DNA from: Bacteroidota bacterium
GTDB taxonomy: Bacteria > Bacteroidota > Ignavibacteria > UBA10030
Reading direction: 5' to 3'
NCBI GenBank assembly: GCA_035506075.1
Contig: DATJQB010000144.1
Span: 1-57,838, forward strand
DNA length: 57,838 bases
Each line of letters begins with the position of its first letter. Position 1 is the first letter of the stretch. Below, piece by piece: positions 4,323 to 22,139 of this stretch. The notes beneath the pieces are model-generated. The model did no database searches. It was not told the DNA's origin and worked only from the letters and a program-made list of their open reading frames with translations. The translations under genes and the position numbers were made by a program.

Positions 4323-4333
4323 AGGACACCACT

Positions 4334-7632: not shown

Positions 7633-7665
7633 CACATCCGATCTCACACATCGTTGAGGGGCAGC

Positions 7666-9288
7666 ATGAACAATCGCCTGTACATCGACTGTTTTGCAAT
7701 GGTAGGGAAGCGCGGCGCGAAAGATGTTGAAGTGCGCTGGACGACGGAGGATCTCATCGACGAAATGGAGTGGTGCGGGATCCACGGCACCTTCATAACG
7801 CACGGCGTGGCGAAGGAATACGATCCAACGTACGGCAACCGTATGCTGCTCCGCGAGCTGAAGAAAAGTCCGCGCCTCTACGGGGTATGGACCGTCATGC
7901 CGCACCATACGGGGGAGATGCCGGTGCCCAAGGATGTCGTGAGCGAGATGCGTGACCACGGCATCCGCGCTGCAAAAATGTATCCCCGCATTCACCGCTA
8001 TCCATTCAACATCGATTTCTGCGGTGAGCTCCTCAGGGAGCTCGAGAAAAACGAAATTCCGCTCATGGTCGAAGGCGGGCATCTCTATAACTTCGACATC
8101 TTCGAACCAAGCAACCAGGTGTTGCTTGCAGACCTCGACATCGTGCTCTCGGCGTTTCCGGATCTGAAAGTCATTCTCCAGGGAACCCGCTGGGAATCGA
8201 CGCGCTACACGCAGCCGCTCATGAAGAAACATCGCAACCTGCACCTGGATCTTTCCGCTCATCAGGGAAATCACGCCATTGAATTGTTTGCTGAGTGGTA
8301 TGGCGCGGATCGCATTGTGTTCGGTACGGGCGCGCTGGAGAAATCACCCGGGGCTGCCAAGGCGTTCATCGATTACTGCACACTCAACGATGCCGACAAA
8401 CAGCTTATCGCGGCCGGAAACCTCTCCAGGCTGACGAAGCTGGAGACCCCGCCGAAGCCGTACAGTGCGGCGAAAAATCCCGACTGGATTGTTCAACGCG
8501 CGAAGGAGGGGAAACCGCTCGACAACATGCTTGTCATCGACGCGCACGCCCACATGTCGCATGACGGCGCGGAAGGAGTGGGATTCATACATCTCCCGTA
8601 CGGTGATGCAACGAGCATGTACGAGCGGGCACAACTCATGGGAATTCAGAAGATGTGTGTGTCCGGCTTCCTCGCTGTCTGGGTCGACTACGAAGAGGGA
8701 AACAAAATCGTCTGGGACGCGATGAAGCGCTACCCCGAGTTCTATTGCGGGTACGCGGCCCTGCAGCCGCAGTACGTGAAGGACTGGAAGAAGGAATTCA
8801 GGACTGCCCACGGAAAGTATAAGATGGGTGGATTGAAGCCGTACAATCCGCGCACGAACCTGGCCTACAATGATCCCCTCTGGGCGCCCTGGTTTGAATA
8901 CGGCAACAAGATCAACGCGTATGCATTGATCCATCCCTCACCCAACGTCGTTCCTGAAGTGCATGAGATTGCCGCAAAGTACCCGAACATCGCCTTTATC
9001 ATCGCGCACACCGGCGGCTCGTTCCAGGACGCACGAAAGGGAATCGAGATGGCGAAGAAGAATCCGAACGTCTATCTCGAAATTACACTTACATCGGTGA
9101 CATACCGGGTGATCGAATTCATGGTTGAACACGTCGGTGCAGACCGCGTGCTCTTCGGGACCGATCAACCAATGCGCGATCCGATCCCGCAGTTTGGATG
9201 GATGGCGTACTCGCACTGCACGGTGGCGGAAAAGAAAAAGATGTTCGGGCTCAACATGCAGCGCATCCTGAAGCGCGTGAAGGTGTAA
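7666..9288 (+). CDS. Tandem amidohydrolase-2 (ACMSD-type TIM barrel) protein with a degenerate N-terminal copy
   Basis: ATG 7666 is preceded by GAGGGG. The C-half carries VIDAHAH, IIAHTGG and LFGTDQP (metal ligands). The N-half aligns to it but reads YIDCFAM, ILQGTRW and VFGTGAL. Confidence 0.75.
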   Translation: MNNRLYIDCFAMVGKRGAKDVEVRWTTEDLIDEMEWCGIHGTFITHGVAKEYDPTYGNRMLLRELKKSPRLYGVWTVMPHHTGEMPVPKDVVSEMRDHGIRAAKMYPRIHRYPFNIDFCGELLRELEKNEIPLMVEGGHLYNFDIFEPSNQVLLADLDIVLSAFPDLKVILQGTRWESTRYTQPLMKKHRNLHLDLSAHQGNHAIELFAEWYGADRIVFGTGALEKSPGAAKAFIDYCTLNDADKQLIAAGNLSRLTKLETPPKPYSAAKNPDWIVQRAKEGKPLDNMLVIDAHAHMSHDGAEGVGFIHLPYGDATSMYERAQLMGIQKMCVSGFLAVWVDYEEGNKIVWDAMKRYPEFYCGYAALQPQYVKDWKKEFRTAHGKYKMGGLKPYNPRTNLAYNDPLWAPWFEYGNKINAYALIHPSPNVVPEVHEIAAKYPNIAFIIAHTGGSFQDARKGIEMAKKNPNVYLEITLTSVTYRVIEFMVEHVGADRVLFGTDQPMRDPIPQFGWMAYSHCTVAEKKKMFGLNMQRILKRVKV

Positions 9289-9296
9289 CCCCCTCG

Positions 9297-11681
9297 ATGC
9301 GATTCACAATCGTTTTCATAGTGCTGATGGTCGTTTCGTTTCCGTCCCGGGCATTCAGCGCGGGCACGGGCAGCGATCGCGTGATGATCCAGAATGAGTT
9401 TCTCAGGGTGGTGGTCGAACAATCCGGTGATGGCTTTCACGAGTCCTACTTCGTCAAGAAGGGGAACTCGTGGATCGAGCTGCTCGAAGCGGGAAGCCCG
9501 GTGCGTCCCGATCCCTTCGTCCGGCAGGATGGGCGGGCGGTTAAGCTGACGGCGCCGACAGTATCACAGGAGCCGGGAAAACAGCAGATCGTTATCGTTC
9601 GTCATGGGCCTGGCAACGCGGTGAGCTTCAAGTCCATCACTCTAGTGCCAAAAGAACACCGGGCTCATGTTACGTACGCCTACAGAACAGGCGGAAGTGT
9701 CGTTCTCGACGGATTCTGGTCAACGTACTCGTTCACGCCGGCGGGCAAGCGGTTCAAGGAATACCGGCCCCTCGATTTCGTCTGGACACCACAGCTTCGT
9801 CCCGAAGGTGAGCAGATTATTGCGGATCACACGTTCCGGTCACCCGCGCTGATGATGCAGAAGGACGGATATTTTGCGGCGCTGGTCCCCGTGCTGTCTG
9901 ATGTCGATGGGAGGGGAAGAAGGATCCGGACTGCGGCGGATTTGGAGGTAGAGACAGCCGACCGGCCGTTCTTTTCCATAGGGCTGCAGAACTGGATTGC
10001 AGAGCCGTATGCGCGTCGCAACACACACGTGTTCTATGATGCCCCGGATTCCCTTGCGCCGCTGCTCGGCGACACGACGGTGACGATGAACTACTTGCTC
10101 TTCTTGCGATCGGATGCACCGAAGCGGGAGGGGTACCGTGAGGTCGTGCGGTACCACTGGGCGACATCAGGAGAAGCCTGGATGCAGAGGGCAACGAGTC
10201 CGCAGGTTGAGCCGTTTTCAGCCTACATACAGAAGGCCTGGTATCAATTCGTCCCGCAGGTTGCGCTCGACACTCAGTACCGGGGCACGCCGGTCACGCT
10301 GCTTCGCCAGGCGCGTCTTGCATGGAGCAATCAGCTTCCGAAGTCAGCGGACAATGACAGCTGGTTCAACGTCTGGTTCAACGCGCTCCGCACGGCTTAC
10401 GGGATGTTTCTGCATGGAAAAGCTGTTCACGATGAGCACCTGATGCGGCAGGCTAGGCAGGTGTTGAACCTCGCCCTCCTCGCGCCGCAGCAGCGCGGAA
10501 TTGCTCCATCGATCTTCTACCTCGACAGCGCCGGCGGACATTGGGTTGCCGATCACGCGTGGGGAGGAATTGACGGCGGGCGTGACTTTGCAATGTTCCA
10601 CAATGCGTGGACCTGTTACTGGCTCCTGCAGTGGATTGATCTCGTTCCCGAACGGAAGCCCCAGATTCTCAGATACACAATGTCGTTTGCGGATTTTCTG
10701 CTGCGCAACCAGCATCGTAACGGAGTGATTCCGTCATGGTACGATCCGGAGACCTTGAAGCCTGTCGAAACATTCCGCGATGAGAATGCAGAGACAGCAG
10801 GAGCGGCACTGTTTCTCGCAGAGTTCGCAGCCCGCACAAAGCAAAGCCGTTATGCCGTGGGAGCTGAACATGCGATGCAGTACATCTTCACACACGTTCT
10901 CCCTGAGCGAAAGTGGTTCGACTTTGAGACGTTCTTTTCCTGTTCACGGAAGCCGGTCGGGTTTTACGATTCGTTTACACAACAGAATCCGCAAAATACA
11001 CTTTCCATGCACCAGGCGGCTGAAGCATGCTACGCTCTCTATAGGCTGACAGGAAAGAACATGTACAAAGATCGCGGCACGGCGATCATGGACTATCTTT
11101 GTTTGTATCAGCAAGTGTGGAGCCCGCGCTGGCTTTCGAAGGAACTGTTCGGTGGGTTCGGTGTTCAGAACACCGACGCGGAGTGGAGCGATTCCCGGCA
11201 AGGATATTTCGCGGTGACCCTCATGAAGTACTATGAATTGACGGGTCAAAAGGAATACTTCGAACGGGGAGTCGCGGCCCTCAGGGCGATGTTCTCTCTC
11301 TTTGAGTCTCCGACATCACCCCGAACGGCAGAAAACTATGGCCATTCCGGCTCTGACCGCCCGGCCGGTGTGACTGGACTTCACTGGGGAACTGGAAGCT
11401 CGGTCGTTTCAATTCATCTCATCACCCGGCAGTACGGAGACGCCTATGTCGACGTGAAGGGGAAATGGGGCGTTGGAATCGACGGATGCAGGATACCGGC
11501 GGTGACGGTGTCTGGCACGACGATCGAAGTTGAAGTGATCAACAATCTGGCAACCGCCCGAACAATCAAGCTGAAGTTCGGCAACGCGTCCAAAACGGCG
11601 TACAATGTCATCGTGAACAAAAAGCCGATGGGCCGCATCAAGGCAGCAGTGTTGAAGGAAGGAATTGATGTTGCTCTCTAG
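9297..11681 (+). CDS. Secreted hypothetical protein (794 aa), possibly an (alpha/alpha)-barrel glycan-active enzyme
   Basis: In-frame ATG 9297 gives a Sec signal MRFTIVFIVLMVVSFPSRAFSAG. The track ORF's earlier start at 9198 overlaps the previous gene. The helix-rich middle and C-terminal regions (ETAGAALFLAEFAA, AAEACYALYRLTGKNMY, FAVTLMKYYELTGQKEYFERG) suggest a six-hairpin-like fold. No family was recognised. Confidence 0.6.
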   Translation: MRFTIVFIVLMVVSFPSRAFSAGTGSDRVMIQNEFLRVVVEQSGDGFHESYFVKKGNSWIELLEAGSPVRPDPFVRQDGRAVKLTAPTVSQEPGKQQIVIVRHGPGNAVSFKSITLVPKEHRAHVTYAYRTGGSVVLDGFWSTYSFTPAGKRFKEYRPLDFVWTPQLRPEGEQIIADHTFRSPALMMQKDGYFAALVPVLSDVDGRGRRIRTAADLEVETADRPFFSIGLQNWIAEPYARRNTHVFYDAPDSLAPLLGDTTVTMNYLLFLRSDAPKREGYREVVRYHWATSGEAWMQRATSPQVEPFSAYIQKAWYQFVPQVALDTQYRGTPVTLLRQARLAWSNQLPKSADNDSWFNVWFNALRTAYGMFLHGKAVHDEHLMRQARQVLNLALLAPQQRGIAPSIFYLDSAGGHWVADHAWGGIDGGRDFAMFHNAWTCYWLLQWIDLVPERKPQILRYTMSFADFLLRNQHRNGVIPSWYDPETLKPVETFRDENAETAGAALFLAEFAARTKQSRYAVGAEHAMQYIFTHVLPERKWFDFETFFSCSRKPVGFYDSFTQQNPQNTLSMHQAAEACYALYRLTGKNMYKDRGTAIMDYLCLYQQVWSPRWLSKELFGGFGVQNTDAEWSDSRQGYFAVTLMKYYELTGQKEYFERGVAALRAMFSLFESPTSPRTAENYGHSGSDRPAGVTGLHWGTGSSVVSIHLITRQYGDAYVDVKGKWGVGIDGCRIPAVTVSGTTIEVEVINNLATARTIKLKFGNASKTAYNVIVNKKPMGRIKAAVLKEGIDVAL

Positions 11682-12741
11682 ACTTTCAACAAAGAACCCG
11701 GATACGCGAGCGCACGGCTTGGCGGGACCGGAGAGCACCGGACGCGGCGGTCGCGATCGTGTCGCCCTAGCGTTGTGCCTTCTTCTTTGTGCACTCGTTC
11801 AAACTGCTTCAGCGAGGCAGGACACGGTGTACATGTCCGTTTTGAACTCGCGTAAACATCGCCTCGGGGCCATGGATAATCCGACCGTCGGGCTCTTCGT
11901 CAGCACCGATGCCGGTGCGACGTGGCAGCACAAGGGATGGACCGGTTACATTCGAACATTCTACACCGAGTCGGGTTCGGACGGAGTTCTGTGGTCCGCC
12001 TGCGGTAATGGAGTGCTTCGTTCGTCGGATCACGGCAGCCATTGGCGTATCACGAGTGGATGGGAAATCACCGAGGTGCTGAAAGTGAAAGTCGATCCCT
12101 CCGATCCTTCGACAGTCTACGCCGCGACAGCGTATGGCGTGTTCAAGACGACCAACAGCGGTGAATCGTGGTCGGAGCAGAACAACGGATTCCTGAAGCC
12201 GTTCGTTTCCGATATTGTCGTTGATCGGGGTAATTCAAAGAAATTGTTTGCTGCAAGCGAAGACGGCATCTATGCGAGCACGAACGGCGGCGCACAGTGG
12301 CGCCTCTGCGGTCTGAATGGAAAAGGAATCCGGACGATCCTCCAGCATCCAGCGGATCCGAAGACATTCTTTGCTGGGACGGAGGACGACGGGGTGTTCA
12401 TGTCGCGCGATGGCGGGACAACCTGGCTGCAATCCAATGCGGGTTTGACGCAACAGACGGTCTACACGATTGCGTGCGATCGTTCGACTCCCGACATCCT
12501 TTTTGTTGGAACACACGGCGGGGGAGTCTATCGCTCTGCCGATCGGGGGAAGACCTGGAAGCCGTGCATCCTCGGGCTGGAGAATCTCGTCGTGCATACG
12601 CTCGCAATTCTTCCCACGAACCCCTCGACGCTCTTTGCCGGGACGCTGAACGGAGGATTGTTCCGCAGCACGGACGGTGGAGCACACTGGTCCTTCAACA
12701 GTCAGGAAGAAGGCCAGGTCTGGGGACTTTCAGTGCAATGA
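11668..12741 (+). CDS. Asp-box (BNR) beta-propeller protein, paralogue A
   Basis: ATG 11668 follows GAAGGAAGGA and overlaps the upstream gene's end by 14 nt. A hydrophobic segment VALALCLLLCALVQTASA is present. There are seven S-x-D-x-G-x-x-W boxes: STDAGATW, SSDHGSHW, TTNSGESW, STNGGAQW, SRDGGTTW, SADRGKTW, STDGGAHW. Confidence 0.8.
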   Translation: MLLSRLSTKNPDTRAHGLAGPESTGRGGRDRVALALCLLLCALVQTASARQDTVYMSVLNSRKHRLGAMDNPTVGLFVSTDAGATWQHKGWTGYIRTFYTESGSDGVLWSACGNGVLRSSDHGSHWRITSGWEITEVLKVKVDPSDPSTVYAATAYGVFKTTNSGESWSEQNNGFLKPFVSDIVVDRGNSKKLFAASEDGIYASTNGGAQWRLCGLNGKGIRTILQHPADPKTFFAGTEDDGVFMSRDGGTTWLQSNAGLTQQTVYTIACDRSTPDILFVGTHGGGVYRSADRGKTWKPCILGLENLVVHTLAILPTNPSTLFAGTLNGGLFRSTDGGAHWSFNSQEEGQVWGLSVQ

Positions 12742-12751
12742 AAAAGACCGG

Positions 12752-14563
12752 ATGATCAGAACCGCATTCATAGTGCTGGCTGGCCTCGTGCTGGGAGTTG
12801 GTACGCTCGCCTCCCAGACTGGGCAGACACCCGCAGCGCAGTTCGAGCAACGAAGGCAGCGACTGCTTGACGTTGTGAGCAAGGAGAGAGACCGCGGGTT
12901 CTTCACGGTGACGGCGAAGCTTGTCACGGGACACGACAGGGACTGGGCGATCGCGATGCTGGATTCGCTGACGACGGATGAGAGCATCGGAGGAATGTTC
13001 TATTCGTATTCGGCCATCGGCACCTATCTGCGCGTGAAGAATCTGCTTCCTGATTCGTTGAAACACAAAATCCGCAGAGCGTACCGGGAGCGGACAATGT
13101 ACCGCGGCGATACGGAAAACCACTGGGTGATGTACTACACGGGGCTCTATCTCGCTTCGCAGACGTGGCCAAACGAAGACCGGTCACAATGGTTCAACGG
13201 CAAAAGCTCCGCCGAGAATTTCCGTGAAGCGCAGTCCTGGCTCAACCAATGGATGAAAATCACTACGACGATCGGTCAGGGAGAGTTCGATTCGCCCACA
13301 TACTTCACCGTGTTCCTGACGCCGATGCTGACGCTGGCGGAGTTCGCTTCCGATCCGGTGATGAAGCGGAAAGCTGAAATGATGGTCGATTTCCTCCTTG
13401 CCGACTATGCCGTCGATCACCTTGAGGGAAATTACTGTGGGGGCCATTCGAGGGACTACCCGGAGGATATCGTCAACCCGCTGTCCGCCCCGGCAGCACT
13501 CTGGGCCTGGCTCTATTTCGGTGAGCCGAAGACCGAGCTCTGGACGGAAGCCCGCTACCGTCCGCGGTATCGCGGCGGATGGGAAACAGTGTTCGGTGCG
13601 ACAACGTCGTACCGTCTGCCCGAGATCATCTATCGTATCGCAACGGACCGGTCCACTCCATATGTTGCAACTGAAACCAAGCGCGTGCGCAACATCATTC
13701 GATTCAACCCGGAGAAGAACCCCCCGGTTTATAAGTATATGTACATGACCGGCTCGTACGCGTTGGGCTCACTCCAGGGGGGAATTCTGCAGCCGATACA
13801 GCAGCACACGTGGGATGTCACCTACGTTTCGGAGAAGCCCAATAACACGATCTTCACTCTTCATCCGTTTTATTCGGGCAAGGAACTGGCGATGTTTTTC
13901 CCGGAGGAACAGAAATTTCTTGCGGACGATGTGAATCGCTATCACATCGTTTACACCGATCCGAACAAATGGAATTCGAGCTCGCCGTACGAACAGACAT
14001 TCCAACACAAGAACGCAATCATCGTTCTCTATACCATCGACCCGGAGGCGCACCATTCCCACATCGACGGATTCTTCCCGAAGACGCTGGACGAGCGAAT
14101 CATCGACCCGTCAGGCTGGATCTTCTGTCGTGCGGACTCGGTCTATGTTGCGTTCTATCCCCTGAAAGCGTACGAGTGGATTGAGGAGAAAACAGACTGG
14201 CGGTGGCGGAGCCATGCGCTCAAGAATGGTGTTGTACTGGAAGCGGGATCCATGCAGGAGGACCGCTCGTTTGCGGAGTTTCAGAAACGAATGAGGGAGG
14301 GAAAACCGGAACTGCTGGAGAGCGATAAGGCGCTGACGGTGCGCTACCGGACCCGCAACGGCGATTCGATGACGTTTACCTACGGCGGTGAGCGGTTGCT
14401 GAACGGCAAATCGACGGACTTTCAATCCTACAAGCTTTTTAACGGTCCATTCATTCAAAGCGAGCGAGGCAGCGGGGTTGTCAGGATGATTGCACGCGGC
14501 AATGCGCTGGAGCTCGATTTCAATAAGGTGACAATCAGAGAGTGGAAACAATCAGATCGGTAA
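12752..14563 (+). CDS. Secreted ~600-aa protein X1, a divergent heparinase II/III-like toroid protein (tentative)
   Basis: ATG 12752 gives the signal MIRTAFIVLAGLVLGVGTLASQ. It is a clear paralogue of 16633..18453, sharing RGDTENHW, TTIGQGEFDSP.YF, LPEIIY, KRVRNIIRF, EKNPPVYKY, GSLQGGILQPIQQHTW, IDGFFP and ERIIDPSGWI. By-eye alignment of the N-H and E.D..Y motifs to the heparinase-like protein at 35201 is plausible but not verified. Confidence 0.65.
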   Translation: MIRTAFIVLAGLVLGVGTLASQTGQTPAAQFEQRRQRLLDVVSKERDRGFFTVTAKLVTGHDRDWAIAMLDSLTTDESIGGMFYSYSAIGTYLRVKNLLPDSLKHKIRRAYRERTMYRGDTENHWVMYYTGLYLASQTWPNEDRSQWFNGKSSAENFREAQSWLNQWMKITTTIGQGEFDSPTYFTVFLTPMLTLAEFASDPVMKRKAEMMVDFLLADYAVDHLEGNYCGGHSRDYPEDIVNPLSAPAALWAWLYFGEPKTELWTEARYRPRYRGGWETVFGATTSYRLPEIIYRIATDRSTPYVATETKRVRNIIRFNPEKNPPVYKYMYMTGSYALGSLQGGILQPIQQHTWDVTYVSEKPNNTIFTLHPFYSGKELAMFFPEEQKFLADDVNRYHIVYTDPNKWNSSSPYEQTFQHKNAIIVLYTIDPEAHHSHIDGFFPKTLDERIIDPSGWIFCRADSVYVAFYPLKAYEWIEEKTDWRWRSHALKNGVVLEAGSMQEDRSFAEFQKRMREGKPELLESDKALTVRYRTRNGDSMTFTYGGERLLNGKSTDFQSYKLFNGPFIQSERGSGVVRMIARGNALELDFNKVTIREWKQSDR

Positions 14564-14565
14564 CA

Positions 14566-15564
14566 ATGTTGGCCGCTGTGCTGATCCTCGGCGGCTTTTC
14601 AGGACGGTCCGGAGTGAACGGGCCGGGCTCTCAACCCAAACCGCTCCGCTATTATGCCGCGGTGTTCCTGAACCGCGGGCATGTGTCCGGGAGTCCCACG
14701 AGCCACGTGGGTCTCTATCGCAGAGATGATGCCGACACTTCGTGGACGAATCTCTATCATACGAACCTCCTGACGTTCGGCATGGGGATCTGGCAAAAGG
14801 GAACAACCGAACGCAGGTACCTTTGCATGGGCAACGGCCTGCACCGGTCGGAGGATGGCGGCCTCACGTGGCGCGTTCTGACGAGCTGGCAAACGGAGGA
14901 GGTGCTCTCTGTAGCCCTTGATCCAAGGGATTCAGCGCTCATCTACATCTCGACACCGTTCGGCATCTACAAATCGACCGATGACGGTGCTCATTGGATC
15001 AAGAAAATGGATGGGATGAAGAGATGGTTTGTGAAGAGGCTGCTCATGGATCACGCCAATCCCGATGTTCTCTACGCCGGAGCGGAAGACGATCTCTACC
15101 GCTCGACCGATCGGGGCGAGCACTGGATGCCACTGCACGTCGGAGTCGAGATGATCGAAGTGGTCATACAGGATCCTGTTGATGGAAGACGGCTGCTCGT
15201 CGGTACGGAGGATGATGGTGTCCGGGTGACGACAGACGGCGGCAAAACATGGATGGCCGGAAAAGGCCTGCCGAAGACAGCCTTCTATGGATTGTGCGCT
15301 TCCCCCGATGGCCGGACAATCTACACGGGGGGATTTCAAACAGGACTCTGGAAAAGTGTGGATGGAGGGTTGTCGTGGAGTCTTCTCTGGCAGGGGGCTG
15401 ATATCGAGGCGATCTTCACGATCTTCGTCAATCCGGACGACGCTCGCCATATCCTCCTGGGGACGAGCGGTCAGGGAATGTTTGAATCGTTCGATGCCGG
15501 GGCAACCTGGCGGTATGCAGGCATGAGGGGCTGTCACATCAAACAAATCGCTCTCTATCCTTGA
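14566..15564 (+). CDS. Asp-box (BNR) beta-propeller protein, paralogue B
   Basis: ATG 14566 lies immediately after the upstream TAA (the track start GTG 14542 overlaps that gene). It has a signal-like MLAAVLILGGFSG and six Asp-boxes: SEDGGLTW, STDDGAHW, STDRGEHW, TTDGGKTW, SVDGGLSW, SFDAGATW. Confidence 0.8.
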   Translation: MLAAVLILGGFSGRSGVNGPGSQPKPLRYYAAVFLNRGHVSGSPTSHVGLYRRDDADTSWTNLYHTNLLTFGMGIWQKGTTERRYLCMGNGLHRSEDGGLTWRVLTSWQTEEVLSVALDPRDSALIYISTPFGIYKSTDDGAHWIKKMDGMKRWFVKRLLMDHANPDVLYAGAEDDLYRSTDRGEHWMPLHVGVEMIEVVIQDPVDGRRLLVGTEDDGVRVTTDGGKTWMAGKGLPKTAFYGLCASPDGRTIYTGGFQTGLWKSVDGGLSWSLLWQGADIEAIFTIFVNPDDARHILLGTSGQGMFESFDAGATWRYAGMRGCHIKQIALYP

Positions 15565-15608
15565 TCTCATTCTCAAGGATGTTTCGTACAAGAAATCTCA
15601 GGTGTCTG

Positions 15609-16616
15609 ATGAAATCACAATGGTATGTCTGGCTCTTCTGTCTTGTCGTTCTGGTCCCGTCGACGATGTTCGCTCAGCATTCGACGGTCTATGCTTCCGT
15701 TCTTTCAACCAAACTCTTCGTTGTCGGTGCAGCGAATCCGGAAACGGGACTCTACCTGCAATCGCAGCCGACGACGGATACGATCTGGCATCACGTCGGA
15801 CCAAAAACGATCCGGGATTTCGGCCTGGCGGTTTATTCCCCTTCGAAAGGACAGATCATCTGTCTTGCCTCCGGGAACGGAGTGCATCGAACGACCGACG
15901 GAGGGAAGACATGGAAGATCACAAGCGGCTGGGAGATCACCGAAGTCCTCTGCGTCACGATTGACCGGAACGATCCCAACATCATTTATTGCGGTACGCC
16001 GTACGGTGTGTTCAGGACCCTTGATGGCGGGACCACGTGGGTGGAATGCACGAACGGGATAAAAGAGAAATTTACCTCGTCGGTCATCATCGATGCGGCA
16101 AATCCCGCGGTGTTGTACTGTGCCACCGAGGGGGGCGTCTACCGGAGCGACGATCGAGGAACGACGTGGATGCGAACCGGGCTCAGTGTGGGGGGAGTAC
16201 GCGTTGTGGTTCAGAATCCCAAAGACCCGACAATGCTTGTTGCCGGAACTGATGACTACGGCATCTACATCACACATAACACGGGCCGGTACTGGGAGAA
16301 AACCGAGGCCGGCCTTGATCATCAGACATTTTACTCGATCGCGTTCGATCCATCGAATCCGAAAGTCCTCTTTGCAGGAGGTTATGTCACAGGTGTTTAC
16401 AAATCTGTGGATGGCGGGGTGAGTTGGGCCAGGAAAAACACCGGCATCTCAGTGCTCAACATCCATTCGATTGCCGTCGACCCCACGAACAGCAACCGTG
16501 TGTTCGCCGGGTCAATGTGGGGAGGGCTCTTCCGGTCGGAGGATGGGGGAGAAACCTGGAATAAAGCGGGTCTGACCGGCTCTCAGGTCTGGCAAATTGT
16601 TGTGGAACCATACTAA
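15609..16616 (+). CDS. Asp-box (BNR) beta-propeller protein, paralogue C
   Basis: ATG 15609 gives the signal MKSQWYVWLFCLVVLVPSTMFAQ (alternative starts are 15561 TTG and 15579 ATG). Asp-boxes are TTDGGKTW, TLDGGTTW, SDDRGTTW, SVDGGVSW and SEDGGETW, plus a degenerate HNTGRYW. The blade GWEITEVLCVTIDRNDPNIIYCGTPYGVF matches paralogue A. Confidence 0.8.
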   Translation: MKSQWYVWLFCLVVLVPSTMFAQHSTVYASVLSTKLFVVGAANPETGLYLQSQPTTDTIWHHVGPKTIRDFGLAVYSPSKGQIICLASGNGVHRTTDGGKTWKITSGWEITEVLCVTIDRNDPNIIYCGTPYGVFRTLDGGTTWVECTNGIKEKFTSSVIIDAANPAVLYCATEGGVYRSDDRGTTWMRTGLSVGGVRVVVQNPKDPTMLVAGTDDYGIYITHNTGRYWEKTEAGLDHQTFYSIAFDPSNPKVLFAGGYVTGVYKSVDGGVSWARKNTGISVLNIHSIAVDPTNSNRVFAGSMWGGLFRSEDGGETWNKAGLTGSQVWQIVVEPY

Positions 16617-16632
16617 CGAGGAAAACTGAACA

Positions 16633-18453
16633 ATGAAACGAACGACGTCTCTTCTTCTCCTGGTGATTTCTTTGTGTGCAGTATCGCATGCGCAGATGGT
16701 GGATCGGGCGACCTACCTGAAAGAATTTGAACAGCGCAGGGCTTTCGTGACGTCTATTTACGACACGATGCAGGCGCCGGGATATTACCAGATTGCCGTC
16801 CGGTATGCGCATAGCAAGGACATCGCCGTTGCCGACAAGATGTTCAAGGAGCTTCTTCGCGATCCGCGCGGCGACATGTTCTGGATGATTCCGTGCATCG
16901 GCGCATATCTCGTGGGCCGGGATAAGATGTCGGACGAGACGAGAGCCGTCGTCCGGAACGCCTGGAAAACGTACGCGCCGTACCGCGGCGACACCGAGAA
17001 TCACTGGTGCATGTACTATTCCTCGCTCTACCTGGCCGCGGAACAATGGCCCCACCTGCCGGGAAGCGAATGGTACAACGGAAAATCATCGGACGAAAAC
17101 CTTACCGAAGCACGGGAATATCTCATTCACTGGATGCAGATCGCCACAACGATTGGCCAGGGAGAATTCGACTCGCCCGACTATTTTCCCGAGTACGCAA
17201 TGCCCATGTTCCTGCTCACGGAATTTGCGCAGGACCCGGCCATGAAAACACGCGGCCGGATGATGCTCGATTTTATTTTCTCCGATTTTGCGACGGAACA
17301 CCTTGCGGGACAGTATATCGGCGGGTACAGCAGGATCTATCAGCCTGCGGTGTACAAGCCGCTCCTTTCCGGAGCATCGCAGTTCGCCTACCTGTATTTC
17401 GGCACTGGAGATCCGACGAATTCCGGATGGATTGTTCTTCCGGCGCTTACCTCGTACAAGCTTCCGGAGATCATCTACGACATAGCGCTCGATCGGACAA
17501 AGCCGTTCATCGAACGCGAACGGAAACGCGTGCGCAACGTCATCCGGTTCGGCTCCGAGAAAAATCCCCCCGTCTACAAATACTCGTACGTCACAAAAGA
17601 CTATGGTATTGGCTCTCTGCAGGGGGGCATCCTGCAGCCCATCCAGCAGCATACCTGGGGGGTACGCTATCTCTATGGAAAGCCATACACGACGATCTTT
17701 GGTTTGCACCCGTACTGGTCGGGATGGGAAGTCGGCATGTTCTTCCCGGAAGAAGTGAAAACCCTCATTGCCGATGTCGTCGCGTCGAAGGGAACGTACA
17801 ACAATCCGGACAAATGGACGGGTGGCTCGCCGTACGAACGCACGTTCCAGGAGAAGAACACGCTCATCGTGCTCTACGATATCAAACCGGGAACGCAAAC
17901 CGAACACATCGACGGATTCTTCCCGCGCAATCTTGAAGAACGAATCATTGACCCCTCCGGCTGGATCATCTGCAAGGCCGGCGACACCTACATCGGATGG
18001 TACCCGCTGCAGGAGTATGAGTGGAAGGAAGAGCTCGAGACACCGGCAAATTCCCTCAACGACATCGGCCGCCCGCAGCTCGAGCGCGTCAAAGAGACCG
18101 GTAACTGGCGGTTGAGGAGCTACAAACTCCAGAACGGCTACGTGATCGAGGTTCGGTCGAAGGATGAGATCGGATCGTTCGACACGTTCAAGGCTGAACT
18201 CAAATCTCATCTGCCGAAAGCCAACCTGACTCCCGGCGCCGTCTCTGTCCACTATACCACGCTGAACGGGGAAACAATGGATTTTGGCTTCCCCGAGAAG
18301 CGCACATTAAACGGCACCGCGGTCGATCTGTCCAAGACAAGACTCTTCGACGGGCCATTCCTCAGTTCGGATGTCGGAAGCGAAAAGCTGACGATCACAT
18401 ACAAATCCAAAAAGATGATCCTCGATTTCAAAGCAGTAACGATCGTTGAATAA
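16633..18453 (+). CDS. Secreted ~600-aa protein X2, paralogue of X1 (divergent heparinase II/III-like, tentative)
   Basis: It has the Sec signal MKRTTSLLLLVISLCAVSHAQ and is collinear with X1 over the whole length (motifs listed under X1). Confidence 0.65.
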   Translation: MKRTTSLLLLVISLCAVSHAQMVDRATYLKEFEQRRAFVTSIYDTMQAPGYYQIAVRYAHSKDIAVADKMFKELLRDPRGDMFWMIPCIGAYLVGRDKMSDETRAVVRNAWKTYAPYRGDTENHWCMYYSSLYLAAEQWPHLPGSEWYNGKSSDENLTEAREYLIHWMQIATTIGQGEFDSPDYFPEYAMPMFLLTEFAQDPAMKTRGRMMLDFIFSDFATEHLAGQYIGGYSRIYQPAVYKPLLSGASQFAYLYFGTGDPTNSGWIVLPALTSYKLPEIIYDIALDRTKPFIERERKRVRNVIRFGSEKNPPVYKYSYVTKDYGIGSLQGGILQPIQQHTWGVRYLYGKPYTTIFGLHPYWSGWEVGMFFPEEVKTLIADVVASKGTYNNPDKWTGGSPYERTFQEKNTLIVLYDIKPGTQTEHIDGFFPRNLEERIIDPSGWIICKAGDTYIGWYPLQEYEWKEELETPANSLNDIGRPQLERVKETGNWRLRSYKLQNGYVIEVRSKDEIGSFDTFKAELKSHLPKANLTPGAVSVHYTTLNGETMDFGFPEKRTLNGTAVDLSKTRLFDGPFLSSDVGSEKLTITYKSKKMILDFKAVTIVE

Positions 18454-18464
18454 GAACACTTCCC

Positions 18465-19406
18465 ATGAGCCAGACACAACATCTTGACGTGATCGTCGCC
18501 GGACTGGCGCTTGCCGATGTCATCGGACGGCCGGTTGAGTTCAACAAACCTCCGAAGCGCGGAGCCCTGAAACTCATTGATTCAATCACGCTGACAACCG
18601 GCGGGAACGTTTCCAACGTCGGCATCGACCTCGCCCGGCTTGGGTTCCGCGTCGGTGCCATCACAAGGGTGGGCAACGATCCGATCGGGCGATTTGTCAT
18701 ACAGCATTACAGGACGTTTGGGATCGATACCGAAGGGGTCATCATCGACGCGAAGGCACAGACATCTGCAACGATCGTCGGTGTGGATAAGAAGGGAGAA
18801 AGGACGTTTCTTCACACGCGCGGGTGCATGAAAAACTTCCGTGCACACGACATCCTGGCCCGCATCCCGCTGATCCGGAAAGCATCGATCCTTGCCGTCG
18901 GCTATCTCGGACTGCTCCCGGAGACCGAGCGGGATTTCAAGCCGCTCTTTCGTGCAATCAAACATGAAACGCAGACAACAATCCTGCTCGACACGGCGGC
19001 ATCGCCGCGCGTCACGGGCAAGGAACTGCGCGGGTTCCTGCCATACGTCGACTATTTCATTCCCAGTTACGAAGAAGCGGCGGGGCTGACAGGCTGCAAA
19101 ACTCCCGAAGCGATTGTCAAAGCGTTCTTCGATGCGGGGGCGCCGCACATCGTCGGAGTGAAGCTGGCCGAAAAGGGATGCTATATCTCTGATGGTCGCC
19201 ATGGCGAATTTGTGAAATCGAAACGTGTCAGGCACGTTGTCGATGCCACCGGGGCGGGCGACGCGTTCGTGGCCGGATTCGTGGCAGCGACGCTGAAAGG
19301 CCTCGATCCGTTCAAGGCTGCCCGCGTCGCAAATTCTGTTGCAGCAAGCTGTGTCTCTGCTGTCGGAGCCTCGACGGCGATCCGTGAGTTTGATTCGTAC
19401 CTGTAA
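18465..19406 (+). CDS. PfkB-family sugar(-acid) kinase (ribokinase/KDG-kinase-like)
   Basis: 313 aa with the C-terminal PfkB signature DATGAGDAFVAGF and an N-terminal VIVAGLALADVIG. Confidence 0.8.
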   Translation: MSQTQHLDVIVAGLALADVIGRPVEFNKPPKRGALKLIDSITLTTGGNVSNVGIDLARLGFRVGAITRVGNDPIGRFVIQHYRTFGIDTEGVIIDAKAQTSATIVGVDKKGERTFLHTRGCMKNFRAHDILARIPLIRKASILAVGYLGLLPETERDFKPLFRAIKHETQTTILLDTAASPRVTGKELRGFLPYVDYFIPSYEEAAGLTGCKTPEAIVKAFFDAGAPHIVGVKLAEKGCYISDGRHGEFVKSKRVRHVVDATGAGDAFVAGFVAATLKGLDPFKAARVANSVAASCVSAVGASTAIREFDSYL

Positions 19407-19413
19407 TCGCGAT

Positions 19414-19433
19414 GCCGGCCCCGCCGGGCCGGT
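19414..19433 (+). other. GC-rich hairpin just after the kinase stop (possible RNA structure or weak terminator)
   Basis: CCGGCCC (19415-19421) pairs with GGGCCGG (19426-19432) around the loop CGCC. No downstream T-tract follows. Confidence 0.2.
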
Positions 19434-19457
19434 GAGTCGGGACTTGACGACGAACAT

Positions 19458-22139
19458 ATGAAGCCAACCTATCACATCGTTTCACACTCGCACTGGGACC
19501 GGGAGTGGTATTTTCCGTTCGACCGCTTTCGTGCGATGCTCGTCGACATGATCGACGACCTTGTCGAGCTGATGGGAAGAAATCCCGAGTTCAAATCGTA
19601 CACGCTCGACGGCCAGCTTGCGGCAATCATGGACTACCTCGAGGTTCGCCCTGAGCGGGCCGACACGATTCGCCGTCTCGTGGAGGAGAAGAAGCTCTTC
19701 ATCGGACCGTGGTATATCCTGAATGATGAATTTCTTTCAAGCGGCGAATCGCACATCAGGAATCTCTCCCTGGGATTTCGACTCGGCAGACAGCTTGGCG
19801 GCGCAATGCCGGTGGGATACATACCGGACCAGTTCGGGCACATCGCGCAAATGCCGCAGATCCTGAAAGGTTTCAATATCGACACCGCCCTTATCTACCG
19901 GGGGTTCGGCGGTGAGCCGGGGCAGGAGCAGTCTGAATACTGGTGGATCAGCCCGGACGGGACGCGGGTGCTTATGCATCACCTGCCGCACGACGGATAC
20001 AGCGCCGGGTATTTTGCCTCGCGGGATGAGCATGTCATTCTCCAGAAATTCACGCGGCTCAAGAACGAGCTCGACGCCCGGGCTACAACATCGCAGCGTC
20101 TCTTTTTCAACGGCGGAGACCACCACTGGCCGGACGAAGAGGTGACCGATGCCATCGGCGTGCTGAGAAAGAGTTTTGACGCCGAATTCCGCCACAGCAA
20201 CTTCCCGGATTTCTTCAGCGCTGTGAGACGAGAGATCGGCGATACCACGGACCTTCCGCAGCTGCACGGAGAGACACGGTTTGGATTCCGCTATGCGTTC
20301 GCCGTGCTCGGCGGTGTGTTCTCAAGTCGTATGTACCTCAAGCAGCTCAACGCCCGGTGCGAAACATTGCTGGAACGGTATCTCGAGCCGCTCAATGCAA
20401 TTGTTTCCCTTGAACGGCAGCGCGACAGGACACCGCAAATTGAACAGGCATGGAAGTACGTCATCCAGAACCAGGACCATGATGCGATTTGCGGCACAAG
20501 CGTCGACGAAGTCCACCGCGAGATGGTTGTCCGCTACGAAAAGGCGCTCCAGATCGGCAAACACGTGACATCAGAATGTTTTGCCGGACTGCTTCCATAC
20601 GACGAGCACGAACATCACGACGACAGGTACCTGTTCGTGTTCAACCTGTCGCCCTTTGAGCGGAGCGACGTCGTGGAAGCGGCTGTGGAGTTCTTCCTCC
20701 AGGATGTCGTTGTCGGCCTCAATCCGGAAGTGAAGGTGGATCCAAAACTCCCGCCTGTCGAGGGTTTCAAGCTGCTCGATTCAAACGGGAGGGAAGCCCC
20801 GTTCCAGATACTTCGGCGCAAAGAGGATTTCGGCGTAACGTATTCGAAGCACGATTATCCTCACCAGACACTTGCTGATCGCTTCGACATTCTTGTCTCG
20901 GCTGAACACCTGCCGACGCTTGGATGGAAAGGGTTCTCGATCATCCGGACGGACGCAATGCCGACGTACAGCTCAACCCTCCGCATTGATCGGCACGTGA
21001 TGGAAAATCAGCTCATCAGGGTCGAGGTCAGCGATACGGGCATCATCACGCTGATTGACAAGACGACCGGAGAAAAATTCGACAAGATCAATTGCTTCGA
21101 AGACTCGGGAGATGTTGGTGACGAGTACAACTATTCCTACCCGGAACGGGACGAATGGATTTTGTCGGAGCAGCGAAAAGCTCGGGTGACAGTCGAGGAA
21201 CGGGGCCCGCTGCGCGTCGCACTGCGGATTGAGCACCGGCTCATGGTGCCCGTGTCGGCCTCCGCGGATGAAAAGTCGCGTACCGGCCAGAAGACTGAAT
21301 TGATAATCTCGTCGGTTCTCTCGATCACGGAGAATTCAAAACGCGTCGATATCCGGACAACCGTTGTAAATACGGCGAAGGACCATAGGCTGAGAAGTCT
21401 GTTCTCAACCGGAATCACAACGAGACAATCGTTCGCCGACACCCCGTTTGCAGTTGTACAACGGACACATCAGACATACGACACCTCGCACTTTGCCATT
21501 GAGCATCCCGCCATGGTGGCTCCGATGCAGCGCTTCGTGACAATCGTCGATGGACGCAAGAGCTTCACGCTGATCGTCAAAGGGCTTCCGGAATACGAGC
21601 TGAAGCTTGATGAGCCGGGCGTCCTTGCGTTGACGCTGCTCCGATGTGTCGCAAAGCTCTCGGGGAGAGATCTTATAACCCGGCCGGGTGGCGCAGCCGG
21701 ATGGTGGAACGAAACACCCGACGCCCAGTGCCTGGGGACGCACACGTTCGACTATGCAATAGTACCCGGTTCCCCGGGCGATGTTTCGGATTGGTCCGGC
21801 GTCTTAAGAGAAGTTGAACTGTTTACAGTTCCGCCCGCGACGGTCAATCGCAAGAATCAACAACAAGAGCTCGATCGAAGCTTCCTCTCACTCTCGCCGG
21901 ATTCGCTCACACTTTCTGCCCTGAAAACCTCCGAGGACCGGAAAGGGATCGTTCTTCGTCTCAGCAATCCGGTCGACAGGACTGTGCGGGGATCGCTGCA
22001 TTGTGCCCGACCGATCAAGGAAGCGTTCCGGGCGAAGATGAACGAAGAGCTCATTGAACCGTTACAAATTGATCACGGCCACGATCTCCACGTTGCCGTC
22101 AAACCATACGAGGTGTTGACGGTGATTGTGAGGATATGA
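19458..22139 (+). CDS. GH38 alpha-mannosidase / mannosylglycerate-hydrolase-like, cytoplasmic
   Basis: The N-terminus YHIVSHSHWDREWYFPF is the GH38 signature. The protein is 893 aa with no signal peptide. Confidence 0.85.
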   Translation: MKPTYHIVSHSHWDREWYFPFDRFRAMLVDMIDDLVELMGRNPEFKSYTLDGQLAAIMDYLEVRPERADTIRRLVEEKKLFIGPWYILNDEFLSSGESHIRNLSLGFRLGRQLGGAMPVGYIPDQFGHIAQMPQILKGFNIDTALIYRGFGGEPGQEQSEYWWISPDGTRVLMHHLPHDGYSAGYFASRDEHVILQKFTRLKNELDARATTSQRLFFNGGDHHWPDEEVTDAIGVLRKSFDAEFRHSNFPDFFSAVRREIGDTTDLPQLHGETRFGFRYAFAVLGGVFSSRMYLKQLNARCETLLERYLEPLNAIVSLERQRDRTPQIEQAWKYVIQNQDHDAICGTSVDEVHREMVVRYEKALQIGKHVTSECFAGLLPYDEHEHHDDRYLFVFNLSPFERSDVVEAAVEFFLQDVVVGLNPEVKVDPKLPPVEGFKLLDSNGREAPFQILRRKEDFGVTYSKHDYPHQTLADRFDILVSAEHLPTLGWKGFSIIRTDAMPTYSSTLRIDRHVMENQLIRVEVSDTGIITLIDKTTGEKFDKINCFEDSGDVGDEYNYSYPERDEWILSEQRKARVTVEERGPLRVALRIEHRLMVPVSASADEKSRTGQKTELIISSVLSITENSKRVDIRTTVVNTAKDHRLRSLFSTGITTRQSFADTPFAVVQRTHQTYDTSHFAIEHPAMVAPMQRFVTIVDGRKSFTLIVKGLPEYELKLDEPGVLALTLLRCVAKLSGRDLITRPGGAAGWWNETPDAQCLGTHTFDYAIVPGSPGDVSDWSGVLREVELFTVPPATVNRKNQQQELDRSFLSLSPDSLTLSALKTSEDRKGIVLRLSNPVDRTVRGSLHCARPIKEAFRAKMNEELIEPLQIDHGHDLHVAVKPYEVLTVIVRI

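Follow-up and report, generated by a model that had tools for sequence, protein, structure and literature searches.

Organization of the gene block

The window analyzed here is a stretch of 57,838 nucleotides from an uncultured Ignavibacteria-like bacterium. In its ORF listing, five consecutive plus-strand genes in the order P-X-P-P-X (PA, X1, PB, PC, and X2) were found where the first-pass annotation had reported them; P denotes an Asp-box propeller and X a protein of about 600 amino acids. The block sits in a sugar-breakdown gene island, and the following genes are considered.

4334–6352, plus strand: heparinase II/III-like (PL35/PL15-like) lyase, predicted Tat-exported (Pfam Hepar_II_III_C)
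7654–9288, plus strand: two-domain Amidohydro_2 protein without a signal peptide (Pfam)
9294–11681, plus strand: Y827, putatively exported ~795-aa protein of unassigned family, directly 5' of the propeller/X block (signal-peptide-like N-terminus)
11668–12741, plus strand: PA, 7-bladed Asp-box propeller, cognate partner of X1 (ORF, Pfam, Asp boxes)
12752–14563, plus strand: X1, putatively exported ~600-aa X-family protein, predicted helical toroid plus beta-sandwich (homology to X2)
14542–15564, plus strand: PB, third propeller paralogue, without an X gene of its own (ORF, Asp boxes)
15561–16616, plus strand: PC, 7-bladed Asp-box propeller, cognate partner of X2 (ORF, Asp boxes)
16633–18453, plus strand: X2, putatively exported 606-aa X-family protein with a predicted polysaccharide-lyase-like fold (AlphaFold2, Foldseek)
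18465–19406, plus strand: PfkB-family sugar kinase, directly 3' of X2 (Pfam)

The PA ORF opens at 11665 (TTG), with alternative starts at ATG 11668 and TTG 11773; homologues point to the later TTG as a possible start. The X1 ORF opens at 12677, and the gene start was taken as 12752. PA and X1 are separated by 10 nt, X1 and PB overlap by 22 nt (or leave a 2-nt gap with a PB start at ATG 14566), PB and PC overlap by 4 nt, and the spacing between PC and X2 is 16 nt.

Signal-peptide calls were made by eye on the N-termini. Hydrophobic N-termini resembling Sec signal peptides were seen on all five proteins, as had been noted before, and were otherwise limited to Y827; the neighboring heparinase-like protein carries a twin-arginine motif (SRRRFL). 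Export of the propellers and X is predicted from these N-termini.

The Asp-box propellers

By regular expression, seven Asp boxes were found in PA, six plus one degenerate box in PB, and six, with THNTGRYW counted in, plus one degenerate box in PC. The earlier counts of 7, 6, and 5+1 agree with this, and the degenerate boxes in PB and PC are additional. The boxes recur every 42–44 residues, which indicates seven blades. Pairwise identity of 29–40% verifies that the three propellers are mutual paralogues. The blade strings that had been highlighted as common to them are present, but they are the ordinary repeat signature of the propeller class rather than a special feature. Besides the Asp boxes themselves, the loops that precede them carry conserved acidic residues (E128, E190, and E231).

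The propellers match the Pfam Sortilin-Vps10, BNR, and PSII_BNR models, and the PSII_BNR (Ycf48) cut-off of 27 bits is passed by PA (27.5) and PC (44.8). Their resemblances are only to one half of GH74, Ycf48, DAIP, and one structural-genomics protein without tested activity. A match to a characterized stand-alone glycosidase, which had been raised as a competing identity, was not found.

The GH74 xyloglucanases have the Asp-box seven-bladed class in common with these propellers, by sequence and structure matches. In GH74 the substrate cleft is flanked by two large domains, and a comparable layout is proposed for the propeller and X. However, in a GH74 enzyme two propellers follow one another within a single chain (700–790 residues), and the catalytic Asp residues sit in the cleft between them, whereas P is a single propeller of ~300 residues and its partner is a helical-toroid/sandwich protein. 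Ycf48/HCF136 is likewise a compact single 7-bladed Asp-box propeller of ~300 residues (structural TM 0.60–0.65), and binding to a partner protein, at work there, is proposed here. Nevertheless, the NCBIfam Ycf48 model gives 42 bits, where 326 are required; the partner is the D1 protein there and a lyase-like enzyme here, and the window genes are carbohydrate-catabolic. The closest relatives are MAGs labeled Ignavibacteria/Bacteroidota, a group not known to be photosynthetic.

The closest single-propeller relatives are Reut_B4987 (PDB 3B7F; E 5e-12 by sequence, TM 0.66 by structure) and the NCBIfam "F510_1955 family glycosylhydrolase" (NF045728). The latter model matches PA at E 2e-41, but the propeller scores fall below its cut-off (142 bits, cut-off 175). 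Unlike the propellers here, neither has a reported X-family partner, and both are without tested activity (PMC3948429).

The X family

X1 and X2 are 44% identical over the full length (BLASTP E = 0.0), as expected from their earlier description as paralogues of ~600 aa. X orthologue groups are 60–87% identical across genomes compared with the 44% between X1 and X2. This indicates that the duplication is ancient and has been kept across many species. The proposed origin of the P-X, P, P-X order by duplication of a two-gene unit is thus retained, but not as a recent local event.

More than 2000 X homologues form 1187 clusters at 50% identity, and none of them carries an annotation. No sequence match of X was found in Pfam, NCBIfam, or PDB: the X profile gave 0 matches against PDB, no consistent Pfam match at E ≤ 10, and an hhalign probability below 1% against the heparinase-like family of the same window. 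In the second heparinase-like protein of the window (35168–37444), H181-N182 and a Tyr align weakly with N123-H124 and Y184 of X2. In other organisms, X is joined to CBM9, BACON/CHB_HEX_C, F5/8-C, dockerin, and CARDB modules, and in multimodular proteins it holds the catalytic-module position beside CBMs and dockerin. Many Arg and Lys residues of X are conserved, which fits an anionic substrate.

Predicted structure and candidate catalytic residues of X

The AlphaFold2 model of X2 (pLDDT 86, pTM 0.87) consists of a helical toroid N-domain (~25–290) and a beta-sandwich C-domain (~290–606). The description of X as toroid-like is therefore correct for the N-terminal half and not for the C-terminal half. 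In Foldseek, the best 23 PDB matches were all polysaccharide lyases of families PL8, PL15, PL17, PL33, and PL35 (E 8e-7 to 1e-3), including exoHep and Atu3025 (PL15; PDB 6LJA and 3A0O for this family), PL33 (8R6Z), PL35 (8KHV/8KHW), Alg17c (PL17), and PL8. In contrast, hydrolases with an (alpha/alpha)6 fold, GH146 among them, and phosphorylases appeared only at E > 0.05. TM-scores to the lyases are 0.28–0.43 at 8–11% identity; these low values indicate a common architecture without proving homology. The idea of a depolymerase fits this lyase-like fold and the carbohydrate-binding modules joined to X elsewhere, the activity being presumptive.

The X-family motifs are RGDTENHW, GQGEFDSPxY, GxHSR, and GGILQPIQQHTW, and in the model each conserved polar motif is placed at the N-terminal end of the helix that comes after it. 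The motifs were located as follows.

13103–13126, plus strand: X1 motif RGDTENHW with the candidate Asn-His pair (coordinates checked, conservation)
16984–17007, plus strand: X2 motif RGDTENHW (R118–W125), candidate neutralizer/base N123-H124 and near-invariant E122
17155–17184, plus strand: X2 motif GQGEFDSPDY (G175–Y184), candidate catalytic Tyr184, with E178 and D180
17320–17334, plus strand: X2 motif GGYSR (family consensus G-A/G-H-S-R), R234 near-invariant
17635–17658, plus strand: X2 motif QPIQQHTW, beta-sandwich domain, with His340 as the candidate second catalytic His

RGDTENHW is invariant in 56 close homologues. Among 49 diverse X representatives, conservation of polar residues is highest at E122 (47/49) and E178 (48/49) and lower at N123 and H124 (41/49 each) and at H340; Y184 is kept in 46/49. 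H340 is His in 55 of the 56 close homologues but in 26 of the 49 diverse representatives. E122-N123-H124, E178/D180/Y184, and R234 are kept down to 24% identity.

In X2, H124 is followed after 60 residues by Y184 and after a further 156 residues by H340. Published Asn/His-Tyr-His triplets are N192/Y246/H401 in PL35, N336-H337/Y390/H555 in PL15, and N186-H187/Y239/H405 in PL39 (PMC12088678, Table 4). The H124–Y184 distance is similar to the Asn/His–Tyr spacing in PL12/15/17/35/39 (same table), and the Y184–H340 distance of 156 residues compares with 155 in PL35 and PL17. By spacing and conservation, these X residues are candidate counterparts of the lyase catalytic residues.

The toroid/sandwich lyases are thus the closest in predicted fold and in the Asn-His, Tyr, His arrangement, and X, putatively exported, shares its glycan-catabolic locus with a bona fide lyase of this group (4334–6352). 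X differs from them by having no detectable sequence similarity to lyase families or Pfam models, by its own motifs, and by its pairing or fusion with an Asp-box propeller, which was not found for lyases in the PDB or the literature searched.

Pairing and fusion of propeller and X

The adjacency of propeller and X that the first-pass annotation proposed to survey proved to be conserved. In 77 species-representative genomes, 79 of the 96 X genes are immediately preceded by a propeller gene on the same strand. Pairing is cognate in 81 of 86 cases: PA-type propellers precede X1-type genes 21 times and PC-type propellers precede X2-type genes 60 times, with 5 exceptions. X-CBM9 genes also have a propeller directly upstream. 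Related loci show the order P X P P X as well as P X P X and P P X; PB is found in only part of them, usually just 5' of PC.

Propeller-X fusion proteins make up 21 of 149 representative clusters (50% identity), often without a linker. For one fusion, the predicted structure is that of one rigid unit with an ordered junction (pLDDT 89, pTM 0.86). We infer that the unfused propeller and X also form a physical complex. The partnership is not universal, since for some X genes (L060–L062) the surrounding 10 kb contain no propeller, and X is also found as part of large multimodular proteins that lack one; in L077 and L078 the propeller is downstream of X rather than upstream.

Between the PA/X1 and PC/X2 pairs, 34 positions are fixed differently. 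His232 of the X consensus is present in 30/30 X1-type sequences, and every X2-type protein has Tyr or Phe in its place. From these differences, the two pairs are probably directed at different linkages within one polymer.

The surrounding gene island

The sugar-acid catabolic neighbors are conserved across loci. The PfkB kinase gene is present in 41/77 loci, directly downstream of X2 in most. The Amidohydro_2 gene neighbors propeller/X in 22/77 loci, minimal loci included; in L084 and L085 it directly follows the gene for X-CBM9. Y827 is present in 23/77 loci, usually immediately before the first propeller, and may belong to the same exported machinery; it gave no PDB sequence match and only sub-threshold GH47/GH76 scores. 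The 4334–6352 protein matches 8khw, 8khv, and 3a0o by sequence, with its Asn/Tyr/His triplet aligned. Other island genes encode an aldolase, an MR_MLE dehydratase, an FAA hydrolase, GFO/IDH/MocA oxidoreductases, GH38, and GH3.

Interpretation

We hold with moderate confidence that PA with X1 and PC with X2 are ancient cognate copies of an exported two-subunit glycan-cleaving enzyme, probably a beta-eliminative lyase. In the lyase chemistry, propeller role, and substrate that we infer, X would be the catalytic subunit and would most likely cleave an acidic (uronate-containing) glycan by beta-elimination, with N123/H124 neutralizing the carboxylate and Y184 and the sandwich-domain H340 serving as the acid/base pair. 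The 7-bladed propeller would dock rigidly onto X, probably lining the substrate cleft as a second wall or capping it so as to fix specificity or exo/endo mode, and would not be an independent enzyme. The two pairs probably divide the linkages of one polymer between them, with PB as a spare or alternative propeller. The products would be imported and then consumed by the cytoplasmic sugar-acid/mannoside pathway encoded around the block. No published description of the propeller-X pair was found in the literature searched, and the pair is probably a previously undescribed two-part glycan-cleaving enzyme.

An unlikely but serious alternative is that X, still partnered by the propeller, is a carbohydrate-active non-lyase of the same fold, either a glycoside hydrolase using E122/E178 or a uronate C5-epimerase. 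C5-epimerases share the fold and the proton-abstraction step with toroid/sandwich lyases. The Glu pair outranks N123, H124, and H340 in conservation and suits a glycoside hydrolase, and no sequence-level link joins X to any lyase family. The GH38, GH3, and GH-like neighbors point to neutral sugars such as mannose, and no GH88/GH105 unsaturated-uronate hydrolase, KduI, or KduD was seen among the window genes to ~50.7 kb and the ArgJ gene (53416–55254). However, all significant structural matches are lyases, the N-H/Y/H pattern with the conserved Arg/Lys fits a lyase acting on an anionic substrate, and the MR_MLE, FAA hydrolase, Amidohydro_2, and PfkB genes fit an acidic sugar.

The many linkerless fusions, the rigid fusion model, and the cognate co-divergence of PA/X1 and PC/X2 across many species argue against separately encoded propellers and X proteins remaining uncomplexed and acting successively on one polymer, with the propeller as a glycosidase or glycan binder. 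We regard this as distinctly improbable, although adjacency and fusion also arise for consecutive pathway enzymes, E128, E190, and E231 could form an active site, GH74 enzymes are among the propeller's sequence relatives, and PB lacks its own X gene. The GH74 active site is formed by a cleft between two propellers, which one propeller of 300 residues does not have, and F510_1955, the nearest named family, is of no tested activity.

A non-enzymatic module for glycan binding, sensing, or assembly, with the propeller serving X or envelope proteins as an assembly factor or chaperone of the Ycf48 type, is very improbable: it would accommodate the PSII_BNR scores of PA and PC, the TM-scores to Ycf48 structures, weak propeller matches to the PorZ and BamI propeller proteins, and a family with no member of demonstrated activity, but the NCBIfam Ycf48, PorZ, and BamI scores are far below their cut-offs, and X has strongly conserved polar motifs at helix N-termini, takes the catalytic-module position in multimodular proteins, and is embedded in a catabolic island.

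Organization of the propeller/X block

The block contains five consecutive plus-strand genes, which encode three paralogous Asp-box propellers (PA, PB, and PC) and two paralogous proteins of ~600 residues (X1 and X2). This arrangement, proposed in the first-pass annotation, was confirmed by the ORF list and by pairwise alignments. The ORF list gives the following coordinates.

11665/11668-12741, + strand: PA, propeller; a later TTG start at 11773 agrees with the homologues
12752-14563, + strand: X1; the ORF opens at 12677
14542-15564, + strand: PB, propeller
15561-16616, + strand: PC, propeller
16633-18453, + strand: X2

The spacing along the block is 10 nt for PA/X1, -22 nt (or +2) for X1/PB, -4 nt for PB/PC, and 16 nt for PC/X2. 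The three propellers are ~320-350 residues long, share pairwise identities of 29-40%, and match Pfam Sortilin-Vps10, BNR, and PSII_BNR. S/T-x-D/N-x-G-x-x-W boxes number 7 in PA and 6 (+1 degenerate) in both PB and PC. The boxes recur at an interval of 42-44 residues, which indicates seven blades in each protein. The X1/X2 alignment spans both proteins from end to end, at 44% identity. As judged by eye, a hydrophobic, signal-peptide-like N-terminus is present on all five proteins, in agreement with the first-pass annotation, and on Y827, the 795-residue protein encoded directly before the block. By the same inspection, no signal-peptide-like start is present on the kinase, GH38, aldolase, or amidohydrolase encoded on either side.

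Conserved pairing of propeller and X

The gene neighborhood was scanned in GTDB representatives, one genome per species, and 77 loci with an X relative were found. All are from metagenome-assembled or uncultured genomes, labeled as Bacteroidota, Ignavibacteriota, KSB1, Calditrichota, and a few others. Adjacency was counted over the 96 X genes that had 1.3 kb or more of sequence before them. A propeller gene was found directly upstream on the same strand in 79 of these, so the systematic adjacency that had been suggested as a check on a joint role is indeed conserved. Gene orders that recur, with P for any propeller, include P X in 21 loci, P X P P X in 12 (the order of the window), P X P X in 11, and P P X in 10. 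The pairing is also cognate: orthologues of PA precede orthologues of X1 in 21 cases, and those of PC precede those of X2 in 60, with 5 exceptions.

Across genomes, identity within each X orthologue group is 60-87%, versus 44% between X1 and X2. This indicates an ancient duplication of a two-gene unit, with both copies retained. The duplication of a propeller-X unit read from the sequence therefore stands; a recent local duplication is ruled out, as the X1 and X2 orthologue groups are each kept across many species.

Propeller and X also occur as single polypeptides, in 21 of 149 representative clusters (20 propeller-X and 1 X-propeller), several of them without a linker. At locus L082, an X1-type gene is fused to the next propeller. 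The model of one 910-residue fusion protein, P0243, has a pLDDT of 89, a pTM of 0.86, and an ordered junction, values that would not be expected from two independently tumbling domains. Foldseek matched the propeller part to one half of GH74 enzymes, 3B7F, DAIP, and Ycf48, and no PDB entry matching both the propeller and the X parts was found. Genes for X joined to CBM9 likewise have a propeller directly upstream, and a two-domain amidohydrolase directly downstream. Counter-examples are the X genes of loci L060-L062, which have no propeller within 10 kb, and multimodular X proteins, which also occur without a propeller. We consider it probable that propeller and X associate physically.

A propeller-X fusion gene at locus L080 (8110-10860) lies outside any catabolic island, with small, unannotated neighbors. 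This indicates that the fused unit can stand alone.

Sequence and predicted fold of the X family

X1 and X2 showed no match in Pfam (E<=0.01) or NCBIfam, the latter giving just a sub-threshold EXLDI match. At E<=10, no Pfam model was matched by more than 1 of 56 X members. A single-sequence search of the PDB returned just two chance-level capsid-protein matches (E 0.04-0.2), and the X profile returned 0 PDB matches at E<=10. By sequence, X falls outside Hepar_II_III_N/C, DUF4962, Alginate_lyase, and the PL families with a solved structure. More than 2000 homologues were found for X1 and more than 2000 for X2, and those with a source name are all "hypothetical protein"; an exhaustive search (E<=1e-3) placed the X family in 1187 clusters at 50% identity.

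X2 was modeled with AlphaFold2 from an alignment of 56 sequences, and the model is confident, with a pLDDT of 86 and a pTM of 0.87. It consists of an N-domain of ~13 helices (residues ~25-290) and a C-domain beta-sandwich (~290-606). When the model was compared with the PDB by Foldseek, the top 23 matches (E 8e-7 to 1.3e-3) were all toroid-plus-beta-sandwich polysaccharide lyases, and unrelated folds appeared only at E>0.01. The matches include the exo-heparinase 6LJA and the alginate lyase Atu3025 (PL15), BtPL33HA (PL33), GAGases and a chondroitinase (PL35), Alg17c (PL17), and a hyaluronate lyase (PL8). TM-scores between X2 and the lyase structures are 0.28-0.43, with identities of 8-11%. In AlphaFold2 secondary structure, domain order, and Foldseek matches, X has the architecture of the toroid/beta-sandwich lyases (PL8/12/15/17/21/33/35/39). 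At the level of the predicted structure, this establishes a shared polysaccharide-lyase architecture, short of demonstrating homology.

X in other protein contexts

Many proteins of ~810 residues in other organisms combine X with CBM9, and X is also joined to CHB_HEX_C, Fn3-associated, and BACON modules. It is also found in extracellular proteins of 1800-3400 residues together with F5/8 type C and NedA-like galactose-binding domains, CARDB, beta-helix, and type I dockerin. The slot beside such binding modules is normally taken by a catalytic module. The joining of X to carbohydrate-binding modules indicates, on independent evidence, a carbohydrate-active role, and X is very probably a carbohydrate-active catalytic module.

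Candidate catalytic residues

Conservation was counted in a diverse alignment of 49 representatives that are 24-57% identical to X2. W342, E402, Q406, and Y415 are also among the best-conserved polar positions of X.

Conservation of polar residues in the X family (X2 numbering)
Residue; members
E122; 47/49
N123; 41/49, plus 6 His
H124; 41/49
E178; 48/49
D180; 41/49
Y184; 46/49
H232; 41/49
R234; 47/49

The E122-H124 and E178-Y184 clusters lie just before, or at the first turn of, model helices 122-138 and 185-198. H340 is His in 26 of the 49 members and is not kept family-wide.

Catalytic triplets of lyase families (Table 4, PMC12088678)
PL35: N192/Y246/H401
PL15 exoHep: N336-H337/Y390/H555
PL39: N186-H187/Y239/H405
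PL17: H200-N201/Y258/H413
PL12: N240/Y294/H424

The triplets combine an Asn (or His/Arg/Glu) neutralizer, a Tyr acid/base, and a His of the sandwich domain. In X2, N123-H124 is followed after 60 residues by Y184 and after a further 156 by H340; the intervals in the known families are 53-57 and 130-166 (PMC12088678). The X2 residues appear similar to the lyase triplets in pattern and spacing. From spacing and conservation, we infer N123-H124/Y184/H340 as the candidate catalytic triplet of X. A hydrolase could likewise make use of the E122/E178 pair.

Two other proteins of the window were compared with X.

4334-6352, + strand: Tat-exported heparinase-like lyase with a twin-arginine SRRRFL signal
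35168-37444, + strand: 758-aa protein

The first matches PL35 GAGases (8khw, E 1.5e-14) and PL15 Atu3025, with residues aligned to the PL35 Asn/Tyr/His triplet, and its relatives adjoin the propeller/X block in 18 of 77 loci. The second has no Pfam match at E<=0.001 and a sub-threshold Hepar_II_III_N match (E 0.033). The hhalign probability between it and the family of the first is 94.6%, which indicates that it is a second, divergent heparinase-like protein. Between X and the 4334-6352 family (Hepar_II_III_C), the hhalign probability is <1% with both the close and the 49-sequence diverse alignment. The 35168-37444 protein is the only faint sequence bridge to X: at a probability of 9%, its H181-N182 aligns onto N123-H124 of X2, and a Tyr onto Y184. 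This alignment may lend weak transitive support to the candidate triplet, and the residue-for-residue alignment of the 4334-6352 protein with the PL35 triplet may likewise support it weakly.

Comparison of the propellers with known families

GH74 enzymes have two tandem 7-bladed propellers in one chain, with a catalytic cleft. PA, PB, and PC, each with 320-350 residues and 7 repeats, are each a single propeller, versus 704-778 residues in the matching GH74 chains, and the alignments of about 330-480 columns cover a single propeller. GH33 sialidases (BNR) have a 6-bladed propeller with a sialidase catalytic domain. The present propellers have seven blades and no BNR_2 match, and no sialidase was found in the PDB sequence matches or among the 50 Foldseek matches listed. 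Identity as sialidases or GH74 enzymes is ruled out by blade number and architecture. Against the Ycf48/HCF136 equivalog NF010237, the propellers scored 26-42 bits, versus a cut-off of 326. Of the three, PC clears the Pfam PSII_BNR threshold, PA does so by a small margin, and PB falls below it. Judged by these profiles, they share the fold class of Ycf48, which in photosynthetic hosts binds the D1 protein; their own gene context is carbohydrate-catabolic. Scores against NF045728 (F510_1955 family glycosylhydrolase, cut-off 175 bits) were 141.7 for PA, 102.8 for PB, and 113.7 for PC; the namesake of this family is without tested function (PMC3948429). By these membership tests, the propellers belong to the Ycf48/GH74-half/3B7F class, outside GH74, Ycf48, GH33, and NF045728. 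The first-pass annotation had set a match to a characterized stand-alone glycosidase against its own two-component reading; the GH74, GH33, and NF045728 comparisons gave no such match.

Divergence of the two pairs

X1-type and X2-type proteins differ at 34 positions that are fixed differently, clustered near the GxHSR motif and in loop 381-390, where the X2 model is least confident. Residue 232 (X1 13445-13447, X2 17326-17328) in the G-x-H-S-R motif is His in 30/30 X1-type and Phe/Tyr in 26/26 X2-type proteins, a clean, lineage-wide split between the paralogues. This divergence would fit different specificities, or changed catalytic detail, in the two pairs.

Proposed mechanism and significance

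In the proposed mechanism, X, once exported, would split an acidic glycan by beta-elimination, using the cleft that separates its toroid from its sandwich domain. Rigidly bound to X, the cognate propeller would add a wall or cap to this cleft. The two diverged pairs would act on different linkages, and the cleavage products would pass into the cytoplasmic pathway. The chance that the chemistry of X is beta-elimination is judged to be about even. X is like heparinase II/III-type lyases in build and in proposed action; however, it falls outside every known family by sequence.

To our knowledge, most descriptions of polysaccharide lyases and glycosidases are of enzymes with a single chain, to which binding modules are sometimes added. 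No account of a lyase-like enzyme that has an Asp-box propeller as its own subunit was found in the literature searched, and searches on Ycf48 in non-photosynthetic bacteria, on DUF6242/heparinase/Asp-box, and on new PL toroid/propeller families returned nothing relevant. Propeller and X, with their unusual architecture of two components, are a candidate for a new CAZy family. A wider reading is offered tentatively, as somewhat doubtful: that they found a new carbohydrate-active enzyme class. In this reading, X would represent a new family of lyases (or hydrolases), and an obligate Asp-box propeller subunit, separate or fused, would complete its active-site cleft. Such a heteromeric CAZyme, its specificity set by swapping cognate pairs, would occur widely among uncultured Ignavibacteriota, KSB1, and Calditrichota and act on an environmental acidic glycan.

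A large family of lyase-like fold, with over 2000 sequences, is without annotation in any database and has a separate propeller subunit at most loci examined. If true, the proposal would bring a new family into CAZy and establish a new principle of enzyme architecture. A recurrent block of "hypothetical proteins" in FCB-group bacteria of soil, peat, sediment, and groundwater would gain a function, and there would be a clue to the polymer degraded by these abundant uncultured heterotrophs. With two diverged cognate pairs, the operon lends itself directly to studies of the propeller's share in specificity.

The surrounding gene island

Over about 50 kb (1-51610), nearly all long predicted genes lie on the + strand, intergenic gaps are short or absent, and GC is even at about 0.56. 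It is a single catabolic array of great length, with its genes pointing the same way. In a scan of 4000-23500, which did not cover Bacteroidota-type promoters, promoters and terminators were no more frequent than in shuffled sequence, so the scan has no bearing on where operons begin or end. The genes near the block, besides the heparinase-like lyase, are as follows.

Near the block: GH65C/rhamnosidase-like protein, DUF4432, GFO/IDH/MocA oxidoreductase, class III aminotransferase
7654-9288, + strand: two-domain Amidohydro_2 protein (~540 aa); also at L084 10510-12123 and L085 10532-12181
9294-11681, + strand: Y827, exported 795-residue protein
Near the block: PfkB kinase, GH38, DeoC/LacD aldolase, second GFO/IDH/MocA oxidoreductase
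Near the block: S9/TPR protein, DUF455, FAA hydrolase, MR_MLE dehydratase, GH3

Much of this gene order is also kept in relatives. A lactonase-type amidohydrolase, an enolase-superfamily dehydratase, an FAA hydrolase, a kinase, and an aldolase are typical of sugar-acid catabolism. The gene mix is compatible with an acidic glycan substrate, without identifying it.

Y827 could be assigned to no family, with just sub-threshold GH47/GH76 matches in residues ~530-680. Its profile showed no relation to X or to the heparinase-like family, and no PDB sequence match was found. In many genomes, Y827 is the gene kept immediately before the propeller/X block; it is duplicated in L082 and L086 and may be a further glycan-active enzyme.

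The two-domain Amidohydro_2 gene adjoins propeller/X even in minimal loci without the rest of the island. Sugar-lactonase-type enzymes belong to Pfam Amidohydro_2, and the protein may act on the product of X.

The Peptidase_S9/TPR gene (24105-25973, +) lies between GFO/IDH/MocA and DUF455 and is missing there in the close loci L001 and L002. At 38406-41001 (+), a strong homologue of MtaB (methanol:cobalamin methyltransferase B; E 4e-154) lies beside a URO-D/MtaA-like gene; the host is not a methanogen. The propeller/X-CBM9 loci L084 and L085 are also flanked by URO-D genes and a radical-SAM gene. As a guess, the MtaB/URO-D genes could serve demethylation of O-methylated sugars. In 43 of 77 loci, X2 and PfkB are followed by a GH38 (19458-22139, +, in the window), which has no signal peptide. 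A glycerate kinase is encoded further along the window (43404-44615, +), and a mannose-6-phosphate isomerase in L082 (20395-21495). Together with GH38, these hint at mannoside or mannosylglycerate-type intermediates.
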